64,000 nt of DNA from an uncultured Methanocellales archaeon (GCA_964631075.1 CAZVYP010000001.1:26647-90646); one strand, 5' to 3'; counted from the first letter of the stretch, positions 1,792 to 22,794 are shown. Translations and numbers: made by a program. Notes: generated by a model from the letters alone, not told the origin.

Positions 1792-1866
1792 GGGCCCGTG
1801 GCTTAGTCTGGATATAGCACCGGCCTTCTAAGCCGGTGGTCCGGGGTTCAAATCCCCGCGGGTCCG
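1792..1866 (+). tRNA. tRNA-Arg (anticodon TCT)
   Basis: Cloverleaf read by hand: acceptor GGGCCCG/CGGGUCC (one G-U), anticodon stem CCGGC/GCCGG with loop CUUCUAA, T-arm CGGGG-UUCAAAU-CCCCG, discriminator G, no encoded CCA. Confidence 0.85.
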
Positions 1867-3099: not shown

Positions 3100-3840
3100 A
3101 TTTGCACCGGCGATAAGACCTACAAGCAAGCCTGATAGATGTGCTGCGTGTGCGATTGCATCGCCTGTGCCCATCATCAGAAAATCGATCAGAGCAAAGA
3201 AAATGACTGCCATTCCTATTTTCATTGGAATGAAGTATATGTAAACTGTCATATTTGGCTCGAGCATTGCCAGTGCGCCGAAAACGCCGTAGAGGGCTCC
3301 GCTTGCACCAAGCACGGGGTTTATCGAGGTTAAGCTATGGCCTATTCCTGCGATTATTCCTGATGTGAAAAATATAAGCAGGAACATCTTGCTGCCGATT
3401 TTTTTCTCGAGCGCTGGTGCGAAGAAGATCATGAACAGCACGTTGAAGAAGAAGTGATAAAATCCGCCATGCAGGAAGATATGCGTGATCAGTGTCCAGG
3501 GTCTCTGTTCGATATTCAGAGGCCTTAATATCAGTAGCTCGGTGTAACCAGGAATGAGTTGCAGTATGAATGAGATGGAAATAATGAACAGTAGTAAATA
3601 GGAATAGTTCTTTGAGAAAAGGCTGAGTGGAGCAAGAACTCTACTTGCTATTCCTGGCTGTGCTTTAGTCGGTTTTTCCCTTGATATGATTTTTCCTTCT
3701 CTGAGATCTTTTTTATATTTTTCCAGCCCCACGCACCAGTGGTTTTCCGGCAGGCGGTGCTCCTCGCAAAAGCTGTCGCCACAGAATCTGCATTTGTACG
3801 GTAGATATATCTGCTTTCCGCAGACAGTGCACTGTGCCAT
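3079..3840 (-). CDS. Rhomboid-family intramembrane serine protease with N-terminal AN1-type zinc finger
   Basis: N-terminus CTVCGKQIYLPYKCRFCGDSFCEEHRLPENHWC (zf-AN1 pattern). C-terminal multi-TM region has the rhomboid motifs GASGALYG (catalytic Ser) and AHAAHLSG (catalytic His). Confidence 0.75.
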   Translation of the reverse strand: MAQCTVCGKQIYLPYKCRFCGDSFCEEHRLPENHWCVGLEKYKKDLREGKIISREKPTKAQPGIASRVLAPLSLFSKNYSYLLLFIISISFILQLIPGYTELLILRPLNIEQRPWTLITHIFLHGGFYHFFFNVLFMIFFAPALEKKIGSKMFLLIFFTSGIIAGIGHSLTSINPVLGASGALYGVFGALAMLEPNMTVYIYFIPMKIGMAVIFFALIDFLMMGTGDAIAHAAHLSGLLVGLIAGANLKKPAH

Positions 3841-8365: not shown

Positions 8366-8735
8366 GGGAGAGTGGAAGGGCAGCCGCCGGTGCTTCAAAG
8401 AAGTGCTGAGGAAAGTCCCCCCACCATCCGGACAGACGAGCGTGCGCAAGCACGCAGGGCGAGAGCTCTGGCTCTGGCACAGCCACGACACGTCCAGGCG
8501 AATGGGATGAGACGGCAAGCGTGAAAACGCAGAAGGAATTCAGCAATGGACTCCGAGCTAACCCGTCGACGACTCGCTTGGGAGCGATGGAACGGCGAAT
8601 CCTCGTCGGTGCAAGCCAGTAAGGGAAAAAGTCCGGATAAACCCTTGGTAGGCGCTAAGCCAAATGCTGCATGGTCCAAATCTCTGCCTGCGCGGAGGGG
8701 CCTAACCGAAGGGGGCTTATTCTCCACACTCCCGA
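8366..8735 (+). ncRNA. rnpB: RNase P RNA (archaeal type)
   Basis: ~370-nt GC-rich gap with no credible CDS. 5' GGGAGAGUGGA (8366-8376) pairs with 3' UCCACACUCCC (8723-8733) as P1. A P3-like hairpin GUGCUUC-AAA-GAAGUGC is followed by the CR-I-like GAGGAAAGUCCCCCC (8409-8422). That strand pairs with GGGGGCUUA (8711-8719) leaving one bulged nucleotide, as in helix P4. The 3' strand is preceded by ACCGAA (CR-V-like ACNRAA...GGCUUA). Confidence 0.6.
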
Positions 8736-8744
8736 TTGATATTA

Positions 8745-8820
<76 letters not shown>

Positions 8821-10269: not shown

Positions 10270-11283
10270 ATGGGAGTTGACCTCGGAGACCTGATCGAGC
10301 GCAGAGAAATAGAGCTGAATGAACTCGCGAATCGCATCGTAGCGATTGACGCCTACAATACCCTGTATCAATTCCTTAGCATAATAAGACAGCCAGATGG
10401 CACACCGCTTACAGACTCAAAAGGCAGAATAACTTCCCACCTCTCAGGACTCATATACCGCACCACCAATTTAATCGAAATAGGAGTCAAGCCGGTTTTC
10501 GTATTCGACGGCAGACCACCCCAGTTCAAAGCGACAACCCTCGAAGAGCGCGCCACAACCAGACAGAGAGCCGAAGAAGCCTGGATCGAAGCAAAAGCCA
10601 CAGTAAGCGAAGAAGCCTTCAAATACGCACAGGCCTCGGCAAGGCTGACGCAGGAAATGATCAGCGAAGCCAAAGCACTCATAGGATATATGGGCTTACC
10701 CGCGATACAGGCACCATCCGAAGGCGAGGCACAGGCATCATTCATGGTGCTCAGCGGCGACGCGGATTACGCAGCCTCACAGGACTACGATTCTCTATTA
10801 TTCGGCTCCCCCAAGCTAGTAAGAAACCTGACAATAACGGGAAAAAGAAAGCTACCGTCAAAGAACATATACATCGACGTCAAGCCAGAAACCATCGAGC
10901 TGCGAGAAATCCTGAAAAAGCTCGAAATCACCAGGGAGCAGCTCATAGACATCGGAGTCTTGATCGGCACAGACTACAACCATGGGATAAAAGGCATAGG
11001 GCCAAAGAAAGCCCTGAAGCTGATCAAAAAGCACGGCACAATAGAAGGCGCGCTGAACGAACTCAAACAGAACATAGACAGCTTCAAAGAGATAAAAGAA
11101 TTCTTCCTCAATCCAGACGTAACCAGCGAGTACGAAATAAAATTCAGGTCACCGGAAAACGAAAAAATCAAACAATTTTTATGCCAAGAACACAGCTTCT
11201 CAGAAGAAAGAATAGACAAAGTGCTCGAAAGACTGAGCATATTTAGAAGCACAATGAAGCAGAAGACACTTGACCAGTGGTAA
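10270..11283 (+). CDS. fen: Flap endonuclease 1 (FEN-1)
   Basis: 337 aa with an N-terminal XPG-N region (MGVDLGDLIERREIELNELANRIVAIDAYNTLYQFL), I-domain (DYDSLLFGSP, GTDYN) and helix-hairpin-helix (GIGPKKALKLIKKHG). Confidence 0.9.
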   Translation: MGVDLGDLIERREIELNELANRIVAIDAYNTLYQFLSIIRQPDGTPLTDSKGRITSHLSGLIYRTTNLIEIGVKPVFVFDGRPPQFKATTLEERATTRQRAEEAWIEAKATVSEEAFKYAQASARLTQEMISEAKALIGYMGLPAIQAPSEGEAQASFMVLSGDADYAASQDYDSLLFGSPKLVRNLTITGKRKLPSKNIYIDVKPETIELREILKKLEITREQLIDIGVLIGTDYNHGIKGIGPKKALKLIKKHGTIEGALNELKQNIDSFKEIKEFFLNPDVTSEYEIKFRSPENEKIKQFLCQEHSFSEERIDKVLERLSIFRSTMKQKTLDQW

Positions 11284-11305
11284 ATAAAAATAATATTATA
11301 ATAAA
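11269..11305. repeat. Direct repeat copy 1 (37 nt) overlapping the fen1 3' end
   Basis: cttgaccagtggtaaataaaaataatattataataaa covers the last four codons and stop of fen1 plus 22 nt downstream. It is identical to 12125-12161. Confidence 0.85.
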
Positions 11306-11414
11306 TTCACAAATATCGATTTGCTCCCTGGCAAATCTGAAAGAAACCAAAACCAAACATATATAACAACAGAGGCAGTTGAGGCTAGCTTCGAAGGCTC
11401 ACTTTCCCGAAGCA

Positions 11415-11432
11415 ACAAAATTTATATATACT
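11415..11432 (+). promoter_or_regulatory. TATA-like box upstream of the toxin-antitoxin cassette
   Basis: aaaatTTATATATAc lies ~35-45 nt upstream of ATG 11464, with GGTGAG RBS-like sequence at 11455-11460. A palindrome agCTTCGAAGg sits just upstream and could be an operator. Confidence 0.3.
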
Positions 11433-11463
11433 TTATATACCAAAATATATCTTTGGTGAGCAT

Positions 11464-11706
11464 TTGAACGATCTCCATTCGCTTCCGGTGTACTTCAAGA
11501 AGCACGCCGTTTTGATGCTTGCCGAGCGCTTTGAGCTGGATTCGCAGGATGCCGAGCATCTTGTAAAAACTGCCAAGTTGCTTAAGCCCATCGAGAAGGA
11601 TGGCGAGATTGGCCTTCTGCAAAGCTGCATTGGCGAGTGCGAGATCAGATTTGTATTTACAATTAGAAAGAAAGTCGTCTGGATAATAACCGTGGAGGAA
11701 ATATGA
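11464..11706 (+). CDS. DUF4258-like small protein, putative RelE/ParE-fold toxin
   Basis: 80 aa. HAVLMLAERFELDSQDAEHLVKTA resembles the DUF4258 core (HAxxRMxERGIxxxEIE). The C-terminus IRFVFTIRKKVVWIITVEEI has the alternating hydrophobic beta pattern of RelE-like toxins. It is translationally coupled (ATGA overlap) to the next gene. Confidence 0.45.
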   Translation: MNDLHSLPVYFKKHAVLMLAERFELDSQDAEHLVKTAKLLKPIEKDGEIGLLQSCIGECEIRFVFTIRKKVVWIITVEEI

Positions 11707-12008
11707 AAACGAAAGTAGTTGAGTGTCCAATCTGTGAATCTCCCATGAGCCGGGAGAGAAGGGAGATCAAAAAGGGAATTTACGCTGAGGTCGAGGTCTG
11801 CCCTAAATGCAATGACGAGTGGATTGATGAGAGGGGCTACGACGAAATCTATCAGCAGCTTTTCACACGCCGAGCCTTTAAAATCGGCGGCAGCCTGGCT
11901 ATTCGCATTCCCCGGGAGATTATTAAAGCGCTCAATCTGCACGAAAATAGCGAGCTCAAGGTCAATCTCAGGGATAATAAAATTGTGATCGAGCCTTTGA
12001 AAACGTGA
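11703..12008 (+). CDS. Putative antitoxin: YgiT/MqsA-type zinc finger fused to AbrB/SpoVT swapped-hairpin DNA-binding domain
   Basis: The N-terminus VECPICESPMSRERREIKKGIYAEVEVCPKCNDEWIDE matches the YgiT-type (MqsA N-domain) CxxC...CxxC zinc finger. The C-terminus FKIGGSLAIRIPREIIKALNLHENSELKVNLRDNKIVIEPL is a canonical AbrB/MazE/SpoVT domain. Confidence 0.55.
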   Translation: MKTKVVECPICESPMSRERREIKKGIYAEVEVCPKCNDEWIDERGYDEIYQQLFTRRAFKIGGSLAIRIPREIIKALNLHENSELKVNLRDNKIVIEPLKT

Positions 12009-12124
12009 GAAAAAAATCCCTCCCAGGGTCACTTGAAATCTTCAATCAGCTATAATAGAAAATCTAACAGCTTCTTAAGTTTATCACGATTTATATAACA
12101 ATAGTCTCCTGCTTTTCTCCGCCT

Positions 12125-12161
12125 CTTGACCAGTGGTAAATAAAAATAATATTATAATAAA
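12125..12161. repeat. Direct repeat copy 2 (37 nt)
   Basis: Identical to 11269-11305. Both copies are followed by ~40 nt of degenerate similarity (ttgctccc..aaatctg) containing short hairpins. Confidence 0.85.
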
Positions 12162-12357
12162 ATTATCCAATACGGCTTGCTCCCGAAAAATCTGCATGCA
12201 ATATTATATGTGGTGAGCAAGCCATATCTGAAAAGGATGAGGCCGCCCTGAGGCGGGTGGGACGAAGTAGGGAAGGGATCACTGCTTTTCTTTTCCAGGG
12301 TTTCGCTGACAAAAAGCTATTAATACTTATGTAACTAAAATCTTTTTTAGCGAGATT

Positions 12358-13173
12358 ATGGTTACAAAAAAAATAAGACTTGGTGATATGGAGCTGAAGT
12401 TGCTGTTCACGCTGGAACAAGAAGGAAAAAACGTGTTTCTAGCAAGTGATGCACACAGAATCCTGAAGTCAACGGATGCCTCTGTGAGAAACGTGCTCTA
12501 CAGGTTGAGAAAAAAAGGCAGAATCGAAGAGATAGAGAAGGGGAAGTATCTGCTGGTGCCCGCGAGAGCCGGTTACAAAGCAGAATGGTCGGAGGTTCCT
12601 TTTCTGCTTGTCCCGCACCTGATAGATAACTACTACCTTGCCTTCTGGTCGGCTCTTAACTACTGGGGCATGACAGAGCAGTCTCCTCGCTCGGTGTTCG
12701 TTGCGACAACGAAGAGAAAAAGAGATTTAACCTACGGAGACACAAAATTTGAGTTCGTGACGCTTGCAAAAAAAAAGTTCTTCGGATTCGTGGAGGAAAA
12801 AACTAATGGAGGCAAATTCAACATCTCTTCAAGAGAGAAAACAGTTGTAGATTGCTTGCTGTATCCAAAGTACTCCGGTGGGCTGGACGAAGCGGTAAAA
12901 GGAATATGGAGGGGAAGAAAAGAGCTGGACTTCGAAAAAATGCTGGAGTACTCGAAAAAGATGGGAGTAGAAGTGGTAACCAGAAGGCTGGGATATATAC
13001 TGGAATTGCTGAAAATTGAAAATAAGATAAGTTCAAAGATAGCCTCTGGCAAATTCAAAGGATATATGTGGCTTGACCCATTGGGAACCAAGAAGCCTAT
13101 AGAATATTCAAAGAAGTTCGGGCTTGCGATAAACCGAACAAGCGAAGAGCTAAAAAGCTGGATGGAGCATTAG
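12358..13173 (+). CDS. AbiEi-family (type IV TA) antitoxin / wHTH transcriptional regulator
   Basis: 271 aa. N-terminal wHTH with RLRKKGRIEEIEKGKYLLVP, typical of the AbiEi_4 antitoxin N-domain. The C-terminal domain is consistent with AbiEi. It is followed 2 nt later by an AbiEii fragment. Confidence 0.65.
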   Translation: MVTKKIRLGDMELKLLFTLEQEGKNVFLASDAHRILKSTDASVRNVLYRLRKKGRIEEIEKGKYLLVPARAGYKAEWSEVPFLLVPHLIDNYYLAFWSALNYWGMTEQSPRSVFVATTKRKRDLTYGDTKFEFVTLAKKKFFGFVEEKTNGGKFNISSREKTVVDCLLYPKYSGGLDEAVKGIWRGRKELDFEKMLEYSKKMGVEVVTRRLGYILELLKIENKISSKIASGKFKGYMWLDPLGTKKPIEYSKKFGLAINRTSEELKSWMEH

Positions 13174-13174
13174 G

Positions 13175-13552
13175 ATGAACGCTGACGATTTAAGAAGACT
13201 TGCGAGAAGAACCGGTTTTGACGCTGGAACTCTTGAGAAAGACTATGCTCTAACATGGCTGCTCAGCGGCATTTACTCAGAGGATTCCAAGCTGAGAGAC
13301 ATCCTGATTTTCAAGGGAGGCACTGCGATCAGAAAGGTTTACTTTCCAGAGTGGCGACTCTCAGAAGATCTGGACTTTACCATCACGCAGAAGGTAACGC
13401 CGGAAACTGTGAGACAGAGTTTTGAGCAGGTTTTTCCGCTGCTAAAAGATACCAGCAAAATTGCCTACTCTCTCAGCTCCTTCAATTACAGCAAACACGC
13501 AATTTTCGCGGATGTTCAGTTTCTTGGTCTGGCGGCTGATGAAGGAAAATGA
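13175..13552 (+). pseudogene. AbiEii/AbiGii (DUF1814) nucleotidyltransferase toxin, truncated to the N-terminal 125 aa
   Basis: LEKDYALTWLLSGIYS ... LIFKGGTAIRKVYFPEWRLSEDLDFT matches the conserved N-terminal nucleotidyltransferase region of AbiEii toxins. Full-length proteins are ~250-300 aa. This one stops after 125 aa, and the downstream space is occupied by a convergent gene. Confidence 0.55.
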
Positions 13553-15215: not shown

Positions 15216-15884
15216 ATGAAAAGAGGTTTGAAGTTGATAGAGCTCACTCCCGAGGGAAGAATCGTGGCAGCATTGATCGGAGGGGCTTTGAGCTATGGCA
15301 AATTAAAAGCTAAAACTAGCTTGAGCGACCGGTGGCTCTCCATCAAGTTAAAAGAACTGACTTCGGTCGGAGTAATAGAATATAGAGGCAATGGTTATCA
15401 GCTTATGAATCCTGCTGATGTTCTTGGAGATCCGGTTTTTGCAAAATATGTGGAGGGAAGCGTTCAGTTAAAGACAAAGGCAAAATTAATTGCCGAGGAG
15501 CTGAGCGTCGACGAGCAGGTTTGCGCTGTGATACTCTTTGGCAGTCTGGCGAAGGGAAAGGCTACTGAGGAAAGCGATGTCGACCTGGTTGTGGTCACGG
15601 AGATGGATGTCGAGGAAAAGTTGAACAGGGTGATTTATAATCTTATGTTCAAGTACGACGTGGCAGTTGAGGCAGTTTTCCTGACAGTTGAAGATCTGAT
15701 AATAAATCTTCAGTCCAGAACTGCCTTTTCTTTCGGGATGCTTGAAGCTTATGAGGTGCTGTATGATAAAATTGGAATAGAGTACCTCCTCCGTGTAAAG
15801 CAAAGAGAACTTCGAGAGAACTGGACTTATGACGAAGAGGCCGCGGCATGGATTCAAAAGAGGCTAATACCTACTTGCAGATAG
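15216..15884 (+). CDS. wHTH + minimal nucleotidyltransferase (MNT) protein, antitoxin-like partner of HEPN
   Basis: N-terminal winged-helix-like segment, then the MNT signature ILFGSLAKGKATEESDVDLVVV (GS...D.D). Overlaps the downstream HEPN gene by 37 nt. Confidence 0.65.
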   Translation: MKRGLKLIELTPEGRIVAALIGGALSYGKLKAKTSLSDRWLSIKLKELTSVGVIEYRGNGYQLMNPADVLGDPVFAKYVEGSVQLKTKAKLIAEELSVDEQVCAVILFGSLAKGKATEESDVDLVVVTEMDVEEKLNRVIYNLMFKYDVAVEAVFLTVEDLIINLQSRTAFSFGMLEAYEVLYDKIGIEYLLRVKQRELRENWTYDEEAAAWIQKRLIPTCR

Positions 15885-16279
15885 CGCTGGATCAGTTGAA
15901 AGATGCTGAACTGGCGTTTAAAAATGAGAGGTATGCTCTCTGTGTGCTCCTGGCGGCTTTATCTGCAGAGAATGCAACTTCTGCCTGGCTTATAGTGCTG
16001 GGAGCCAAACCTAGCAAGAAACATAGAAATTCCCTGGTATTGAAAAGACTGGCGGAGAGCATTAACGAGAAGCTGAAGGAAGGATTGATGGAAGCGATCA
16101 GATCCATGGAAGAGCTTGAACCGCATGTTACTAAAGCCAGATATCCGATTCGCCATGACTTAGAACTTCTCCCACCCAGCAAATTTTACACAAAAGAAAA
16201 AGCAGCAGAAAGCTTAGCTAAAGCAGAATATGTGGTTGAGCTTGTAAAACAGAGAGTTCACACAGATTTTAAAAGCTGA
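15848..16279 (+). CDS. HEPN-domain protein (toxin-like partner of MNT)
   Basis: 143-aa helical protein. The N-terminus YLQIALDQLKDAELAFKNERYALCVLLAALSAENATSA is typical of HEPN. KARYPIRH is a candidate Rx4-6H motif. Confidence 0.6.
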   Translation: MDSKEANTYLQIALDQLKDAELAFKNERYALCVLLAALSAENATSAWLIVLGAKPSKKHRNSLVLKRLAESINEKLKEGLMEAIRSMEELEPHVTKARYPIRHDLELLPPSKFYTKEKAAESLAKAEYVVELVKQRVHTDFKS

Positions 16280-22678: not shown

Positions 22679-22794
22679 GGGCTCGTAGCTCAGTTAGGCA
22701 GAGCATCTGGCTTTTATTCTCTGGACCATCGCGAGTAGCGAGTGGAAGCCTAGAAGATACCAGGTGGCCGGGGGTTCAAATCCCCCCGAGCCCG
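22679..22794 (+). tRNA. tRNA-Lys (anticodon TTT) with ~42-nt intron
   Basis: Acceptor GGGCUCG/CGAGCCC, D-arm GCUC-AGUUAGGCA-GAGC, anticodon stem UCUGG/CCAGG. Mature loop CUUUUAA is obtained by removing 42 nt after position 37. T-arm GGGGG-UUCAAAU-CCCCC, discriminator G. Confidence 0.6.

Follow-up and report, generated by a model that had tools for sequence, protein, structure and literature searches.

What are the two small overlapping genes that lie between a flap endonuclease gene and an AbiEi gene on an archaeal chromosome, and how did they come to be there? We addressed this question for positions 11,464 to 12,008 of a 64,000-nucleotide stretch of DNA from an uncultured Methanocellales archaeon (GCA_964631075.1, CAZVYP010000001.1:26647-90646). 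This whole stretch is hereafter called the window, and an archaeal RNase P RNA within it indicates an archaeal chromosome. An initial annotation had read the two genes as a toxin-first toxin-antitoxin (TA) pair, the antitoxin of which joins a MqsA/YgiT-type zinc finger to an AbrB DNA-binding domain. Our analysis supports most of this reading and alters part of it: the locus is probably a type II TA module on an inserted cassette of ~0.8 kb, in which a toxin of the DUF4258 family precedes an antitoxin made of an AbrB domain and a zinc ribbon of another type.

The two open reading frames (ORFs) are as annotated, the stop codon of gene 1 and the start codon of gene 2 sharing four nucleotides (ATGA, 11703-11706). 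Both have homologues at 40-68% identity in which all insertions and deletions preserve the frame, and they recur next to each other in the same order, which makes the pair more than a product of chance; a 199-amino acid (aa) antisense ORF (11433-12032) was rejected as a shadow of the two sense genes. Homologous loci were mostly collected via the antitoxin. Of 29 genome loci obtained in this manner, 15 contain the two genes intact and in the same order, in most cases joined by the ATGA overlap, and in all three loci retrieved via the toxin (toxins 44-57% identical) it is followed by a gene for a zinc-ribbon-AbrB protein of 94-96 aa. The closest relatives of both genes come from Methanoperedens, Methanocellaceae and Thermoplasmata, where the pair keeps its order and overlap, as it does in one Lokiarchaeia genome; the module family was encountered almost only in archaea. 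Locus neighbours are unrelated to one another (helicase, acylphosphatase, tRNA synthetase, glycosidase and others), and some genomes carry two loci. We thus find two small co-directional genes that stay linked across unrelated contexts, as is general for type II modules. Distances among toxins correlate with those among antitoxins (Mantel test, r = 0.87-0.88, p = 2e-4), indicating inheritance as a unit without pointing to the domain in contact. The TTG start of the toxin was adopted because the conserved N-terminus would otherwise be excluded; most homologues keep it, and in several a stop codon lies immediately 5′ of it. GGTGA- or GGAG-like motifs occupy the equivalent position upstream of the toxin gene in homologues, the TVEE codons at the toxin 3′ end are conserved, and the junction ...GAGGAATGCAAATGA is likewise kept.

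Gene 1 had been described as an 80-aa DUF4258/RelE-like candidate toxin, and at the level of the family the DUF4258 assignment is sound. The window protein aligns with almost the whole Pfam DUF4258 profile (PF14076, positions 1-69 of 71) at 17.6 bits, where the cutoff is 25 (E = 0.005), and all 20 aligned family members have their strongest Pfam hit to DUF4258, down to E = 3e-7. A profile search returned 164 relatives of the toxin, every one with a named source being archaeal; NCBI gives several of them the name DUF4258, and many carry precomputed PF14076 hits or such names. Structurally, the AlphaFold2 (AF2) model of gene 1 (pLDDT 91) has the Barnase-EndoU-Colicin-RelE (BECR) alpha/beta fold and matches MqsR, BrnT and RelE, with MqsR as the top match and toxins making up nearly all of the matches. 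Membership of the MqsR family was rejected, as hhalign of the toxin family against E. coli MqsR gave a probability of 0.3% and no Pfam hit to the MqsR family was found among the window protein and the 20 members; it is the fold alone that is similar. Seven residues are invariant (P8, H14, A15, G47, G50, T76 and E78) and the nearly invariant ones include R22, F23, H32, K35, K41 and K45, a set that, judged from sequence, would plausibly serve a metal-independent ribonuclease (RNase). In previous work, DUF4258 has been placed among the BECR toxins and fusions of DUF4258 with MqsA have been reported (PMC11980606; bioRxiv 10.64898/2026.08.28.747851), the 2026 preprint assigning it to the colicin-like branch of BECR RNases, overlapping Ntox49 (bioRxiv 10.64898/2026.08.28.747851). 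No member has been characterised experimentally (PMC11980606).

Decayed copies of the module fit a toxic gene 1, since it is the toxin that is lost or broken and the antitoxin that is kept. The toxin has an internal deletion in L008 and a stop codon in L029, both with an intact antitoxin, and L011, L016 and L023 are antitoxin-only. In the sole locus with a broken (frameshifted) antitoxin, L022, the toxin is mutated at G47, a position invariant in 39 other sequences. The whole toxin gene is gone from three Methanoperedens-group loci of common context (L017 2962-3285, L021 2953-3261 and L030 848-1093), where the first CxxC of the antitoxin is lost and the AbrB reading frame is intact; this frame may be a domesticated stand-alone regulator. 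One could extend such a role to the pair as a whole, with gene 2 an AbrB repressor carrying a zinc-ribbon sensor or DNA-binding domain and gene 1 a non-toxic co-factor of BECR fold. AbrB proteins are general regulators, the AbrB-only frames of these three loci have stayed intact, and DUF4258 has never been tested (PMC11980606), all of which would agree with a regulator and its accessory protein. Nevertheless, this explanation is improbable in view of the toxins that dominate the fold matches of gene 1, the patchy distribution with more than one copy per genome, the variable context and the directional decay of the toxin, and the conservation of H14, H32, R22, K35 and E78, as would be seen in an enzyme.

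The CxxC...CxxC zinc ribbon annotated at the N-terminus of gene 2 is present (C8xxC11 and C33xxC36), with FKIGGSLAIRIP...KIVIEP after it. None of the four cysteines varies among the 16 aligned sequences in which both CxxC motifs are present, and the model shows a beta-hairpin zinc ribbon and then a helix. At the other end, an AbrB domain replaces the helix-turn-helix (HTH) of MqsA, also as annotated: residues 59-100 exceed the cutoff of the AbrB/MazE/SpoVT profile (PF04014, 47.4 bits, E = 1.8e-12) and adopt the swapped-hairpin fold, with 7d2n and MazE as relatives in the PDB and a root-mean-square deviation (rmsd) of 0.9-1.3 Å to MazE by Foldseek. This domain is the C-terminal end of the protein, without a tail, and the extra domain is N-terminal, which is not the order of MazE, VapB and PrlF, where an N-terminal AbrB domain is followed by a C-terminal toxin-binding tail.

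Contrary to the initial annotation, the ribbon is not demonstrably of YgiT/MqsA type. Among the families it had named, Pfam searches of the two proteins returned DUF4258, below its cutoff, and AbrB, but the YgiT-type finger (TIGR03831) stayed under threshold, with 15.9 bits where 20.2 are required, and just 11 of 28 antitoxin members match it. By comparison, PF13453 matches 24 of the 28, with a best E of 3.6e-6, the window protein itself reaching 15 bits (cutoff 22). The best solved relative of residues 1-50 by both sequence (E = 0.0027) and fold is ZifS (8yoz), these E-values being weak; the rmsd is 1.8-2.3 Å to ZifS (47-49 columns) vs 5.5-6.5 Å to MqsA. Membership of the MqsA family was rejected (hhalign against E. 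coli MqsA, 2.8% probability), and gene 2 shows neither a demonstrable YgiT-type N-terminal finger nor an XRE helix-turn-helix. PF15731, which we take to be the MqsA_antitoxin family, is absent from the Pfam hit tables for the window proteins and the antitoxin family. The ribbon is hence a better fit to PF13453/ZifS than to MqsA/YgiT, and "MqsA-like" therefore names a layout and not family membership.

Used by itself as the query of an exhaustive phmmer search, the ribbon gave 42 relatives, comprising family members and fragments, distant zinc-ribbon-AbrB proteins, tandem PF13453 proteins and one zinc-ribbon-HicB fusion; no zinc finger joined to an HTH was found among the 23 that were read and the 8 that were scanned with Pfam. 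The fusion (P0190, L119 1501-2352, 283 aa) carries a similar zinc ribbon attached to HicB-like domains, and upstream of it lie a small HicB-like gene and a DUF2283-like gene, the latter judged by eye; a DUF4258 neighbour was looked for and none was found. Databases label gene 2 generically as an AbrB/MazE/SpoVT protein. In the literature we found no paper describing a zinc-ribbon-AbrB antitoxin, and none on the function of ZifS (TTHA0897, 8YOZ). The combination of such an antitoxin with a DUF4258-like toxin, which had not been recognised as characterised, was found in no paper either.

How might such a pair work? Gene 1, a small BECR-fold protein resembling RelE and MqsR, would most likely cut RNA and thereby arrest translation. 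AbrB domains function as dimers, for which reason a toxin-antitoxin2-toxin complex is to be expected, arranged like MqsR-MqsA2-MqsR: two gene 2 AbrB domains would pair into a swapped-hairpin DNA-binding dimer, and each N-terminal ribbon with its following helix would grip and block a toxin. Because the AbrB domain ends the protein without a tail, the arrangement of MazE and VapB is excluded and the toxin-binding element falls to the N-terminus. On balance, we favour the ribbon plus helix as the neutralising element, a choice supported by the toxin-less loci L017, L021 and L030, which lost the first CxxC and kept AbrB. In MqsA, too, the N-terminal zinc domain holds MqsR (PDB 3hi2). An alternative within the TA reading is that the linker helix (residues 43-54) or the AbrB domain holds the toxin, the ribbon being a zinc or redox switch or a nucleic-acid-binding add-on. 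Ribbons of PF13453/ZifS type are indeed widespread and their settings vary, with tandem arrays and HicB fusions among them, and the Mantel test does not single out the ribbon; applied by domain to choose the one in contact with the toxin, it gave r = 0.87 and 0.88, equal and uninformative. Yet the loss of the first CxxC alongside the toxin, the MqsA precedent and the conservation of the ribbon, at least as high as that of AbrB (mean distance 0.36 vs 0.41), speak against this alternative, and we regard it as unlikely.

Expression of the module can be sketched along similar lines. An excess of antitoxin would arise through translation, with a weak conserved TTG and a partial Shine-Dalgarno sequence (GGTGA) for the toxin, and for the antitoxin an ATG, a strong GGAGGA within the last toxin codons and the ATGA overlap, which would couple its translation to that of the toxin. 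As a binding site for gene 2, an upstream palindrome, CTTCGAAG, had been put forward. The palindrome exists, but a single one is not significant, as chance would give about 0.4 perfect palindromes of 8 bp in every 100 nt, and we rejected it as operator as it recurs in 1 of 19 homologous upstream regions (L028, as TTCGAAGG) and is absent from the other 18. What is conserved instead are three phased AT-rich boxes, TATATAC (11425-11431), TATATAC (11434-11440) and ATATATC (11445-11451), at approximately -39, -30 and -19 relative to the start codon. Homologues have phased TATATAC-like boxes at about -40, -30 and -19, and their remaining upstream DNA is unrelated; GTATATAC, too, is a palindrome. A two-box pattern marks a single site in the window; among the homologous loci it is found in 12 of the 19 upstream regions and at no other place. 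The distal box, together with TTTATATA at 11421-11428, probably serves as TATA box, and comparison of the homologues makes the phased boxes a candidate promoter/operator. With or without bound toxin, the dimer would then sit on the boxes between TATA box and start codon and repress the operon, a repressor on the proximal boxes blocking initiation.

The more unusual part of this locus is not the TA pair but the duplications that flank it. In the window, a direct repeat of 72 nt brackets the cassette, with 86% identity between the copies. Their first 37 nt are identical, and this 37-mer occurs at those two places alone within the window, against a chance expectation of 0. The genuine fen1 3′ end is that of copy 1, of which copy 2 is an incomplete duplicate. 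Such bracketing was seen in 6 of 20 cassette loci and in 0 of 201 size-matched control segments. Besides the window, these loci are L001, L007, L010, L018 and L028, with locus-specific repeats of 38-143 nt and 78-97% identity; for the window, L001 and L018, it is the 3′ end of a flanking gene that is duplicated. A seventh case (L123/L124) sits within a larger repeat array beside an SU10-like provirus. There (L124 6600-11400, CP070751.1, Thermoplasmata), small genes including the TA pair alternate with GC-rich repeats of 70-300 nt, the neighbouring provirus has portal and major capsid genes, and one repeat unit folded no better than shuffles.

As to how the cassette was inserted, there is no recombinase between the repeats. 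At L010, a 395-aa ORF (608-1795) is located 500 nt upstream of the 38-nt repeat that encloses the cassette there (2293-2330 and 3538-3575, 97% identity); on visual inspection of the N-terminal sequence alone, this ORF resembles a tyrosine recombinase. Integron attC sites were considered and rejected: in folding, the two window repeats show no advantage over shuffles (z = -1.9 and +0.1) and form no hairpins, and therefore are not attC sites, and copy 1 includes the coding end of fen1. As for an empty insertion site, the exact chimeric pattern was unmatched in metagenome contigs; the nearest FEN-1 loci in these are 66% identical, the cassette was present in 0 of 80, and contigs from exact FEN-1 or AbiEi matching ended at the repeat or already carried the cassette. 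Candidate origins are the single-crossover integration of a circle containing the cassette and target homology, or the remnant of a larger integrated element kept by the addictive module. A more far-reaching proposal is that the cassette, which in 0.66-1.25 kb contains the promoter and both genes but no recombinase, is itself the mobile unit, the entry of which duplicates 40-140 nt of target, often a gene 3′ end, so that the flanking gene stays intact; integration of a small circle by single crossover is one possible route for this as well. We consider this proposal doubtful. If true, it would represent a mode of TA spread independent of plasmids, viruses, transposons and integrons. Recurrent duplication of target sequence beside the cassette gives a hint of the route by which such modules spread in archaea.

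The coordinates of the module and of its surroundings are given in Table 1. The pair is located in a small islet with AbiEi/AbiEii genes and an MNT/HEPN pair, the latter a third TA-like module within 5 kb of fen1. The truncation of AbiEii is identical in an independent assembly (L037), which suggests that AbiEi/AbiEii is a type IV module in decay. This setting raises the question of whether the main role of the pair is abortive infection, in which the same two proteins would act against viruses, infection releasing the RNase, and stabilisation of a plasmid or other element would not be the main role. The adjoining AbiEi/AbiEii and MNT/HEPN modules, the homologue beside an SU10-like provirus (L124) and the action of BECR toxins of other families in defence (PMC11980606) argue for it, but PADLOC gave no hit for either protein, most homologous loci lie outside recognisable defence islands, and the neighbouring AbiEii is truncated. 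We judge this role to be possible though rather unlikely, and it would be compatible with a type II TA module. Decay could also be suspected of the window copy itself, which would leave it an inactive remnant: it is the most divergent member, with no more than 68% identity to any relative, decay is common among the homologous loci, and AbiEii next to it is truncated. Both frames are, however, full length with all invariant residues of their families, and the junction, still ATGA, is preserved together with the upstream boxes and the ribosome-binding site of each gene, making a remnant very improbable.

Table 1. Features of the window discussed in the text (positions counted from its first nucleotide)
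Feature	Position	Strand	Remarks
tRNA gene	1792-1866	+	
Archaeal RNase P RNA	8368-8731	+	177 bits
tRNA gene	8747-8820	-	
fen1 (flap endonuclease; XPG_N + XPG_I)	10270-11283		Immediately upstream of the pair; stop codon 11281-11283
Direct repeat, copy 1	11269-11339	+	Last 15 nt of fen1 and intergenic sequence; left cassette border
Palindrome CTTCGAAG (8 bp)	11389-11396	.	Operator candidate of the initial annotation; probably not operator
Candidate promoter/operator, three phased AT-rich boxes	11421-11451	+	From homologue comparison
Shine-Dalgarno-like GGTGA	11455-11459	+	4 nt 5′ of gene 1 TTG; read from sequence
Gene 1	11464-11706	+	TTG start, 80 aa; DUF4258 family, BECR/RelE-like fold, presumed RNase toxin
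Strong Shine-Dalgarno GGAGGA for gene 2	11694-11699	+	Inside TVEE codons at toxin 3′ end; read from sequence
Gene 2	11703-12008	+	ATG start, 101 aa; zinc ribbon + AbrB
Gene 2 residues 1-56, C4 zinc ribbon (C8, C11, C33, C36) then helix (residues 43-54)	11703-11870	+	Closest to PF13453/ZifS type; proposed toxin-binding module
Gene 2 residues 57-101, AbrB/MazE/SpoVT swapped-hairpin domain	11871-12008	+	Proposed dimerisation and operator-binding module
Direct repeat, copy 2	12125-12194	+	Partial duplicate of fen1 3′ end and intergenic sequence; right cassette border
AbiEi gene (271 aa), then truncated AbiEii (125 aa)	12358-13552	+	AbiEii covers profile positions 4-117 of 260
MNT/HEPN pair	15216-16279	+	Nucleotidyltransferase (NTP_transf_2/Polbeta) gene overlapping HEPN gene
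tRNA gene	22679-22794	+	Probably contains an intron, because the gene spans 116 nt

Two further observations concern the DNA downstream of the cassette. A full-length Rfam match to the DUF3800-X RNA (RF02984) lies at 12211-12284 on the plus strand (58.6 bits, gathering score 38.2, E = 3e-11), here directly 5′ of the AbiEi gene and not of a DUF3800 gene. The RNA was rejected as a part of the cassette, since 20 other cassette loci are without it. In addition, the 15 nt preceding the toxin start (11448-11462, TATCTTTGGTGAGCA) are 87% identical to 12205-12219 (TATATGTGGTGAGCA) at the 5′ edge of this RNA, a likeness that may be chance or part of the duplication.

Several points weigh against a type II TA module as we describe it. 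The window toxin is under the Pfam cutoff for DUF4258, a family for which catalytic residues are not established, and PADLOC has no model matching either protein. As the loci were gathered through the antitoxin, toxin-only loci would be missed. What the analysis establishes is the gene structure, the family assignments, the folds and the conservation of both the linkage and the upstream boxes; toxicity, RNA as the target, neutralisation, DNA binding and repression of the operon are all functions that we infer, and the toxin-binding role suggested for the ribbon comes from domain order and analogy with MqsA, to which homology is not demonstrable. The Mantel test gives the zinc ribbon no preference over the AbrB domain, an equivalent ribbon is also fused to HicB-like domains without a DUF4258 neighbour, and the AT-rich boxes may simply be promoter elements.

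A TA module of this make-up would be of interest for several reasons. DUF4258 comprises ~6,000 predicted toxins, none of them characterised, and the archaeal subfamily offers a compact, well-modelled pair for activity tests. The MqsA-style layout, a zinc domain presumably holding the toxin and a DNA-binding dimerisation domain, would here have been built independently from different parts, which bears on the modular evolution of antitoxins. From a practical point of view, the module could serve as a selection or stabilisation tool in Methanoperedens, Methanocella and Thermoplasmata, for which genetic tools are scarce.

Where, then, does the pair stand among known systems? By layout, the closest is MqsR-MqsA (E. 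coli ygiU-ygiT; PDB 3hi2, 3gn5), which likewise has the toxin gene first, the zinc domain N-terminal and the DNA-binding domain C-terminal, an analogy strengthened by MqsR being the top structural match of the toxin. In contrast to that system, the window toxin is outside the MqsR family, the ribbon is PF13453/ZifS-like where that of MqsA is YgiT-type, an AbrB swapped hairpin stands where MqsA has an XRE helix-turn-helix, and the homologues found are almost all archaeal. By toxin, the closest are the DUF4258 (PF14076/Ntox49) toxins, which belong to the same family by profile and also have a partner with a zinc finger (Gerdes 2025, PMC11980606). However, these published partners are of MqsA type (zinc finger and HTH, including fusions) and are listed antitoxin-first (PMC11980606), whereas the window pair is toxin-first with a ribbon and AbrB. 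The ribbon has its own counterpart in ZifS (TTHA0897, PDB 8yoz), a stand-alone protein of ~80 aa without an AbrB domain that carries a PF13453 zinc finger and matches gene 2 residues 1-50 in sequence and fold; gene 2 joins a ribbon resembling it to AbrB.

By DNA-binding domain, the closest known systems are MazE, VapB and PrlF, in all of which, as here, the AbrB/MazE domain is the DNA-binding module. Their AbrB domain is N-terminal, their toxin-binding tail C-terminal and their antitoxin gene first, and the window pair is reversed, with a zinc ribbon at the N-terminus and no tail. AbrB antitoxins can partner toxins of the RelE superfamily, as in PrlF-YhaV, where a BECR toxin is matched with an AbrB antitoxin. 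Lacking a toxin of the MqsR family, a demonstrable YgiT finger, an XRE domain and the domain order of MazE, the pair is therefore a member of neither MqsRA nor MazEF. Its type II TA frame is ordinary, its toxin family is experimentally undescribed, and what is new is the combination of domains.
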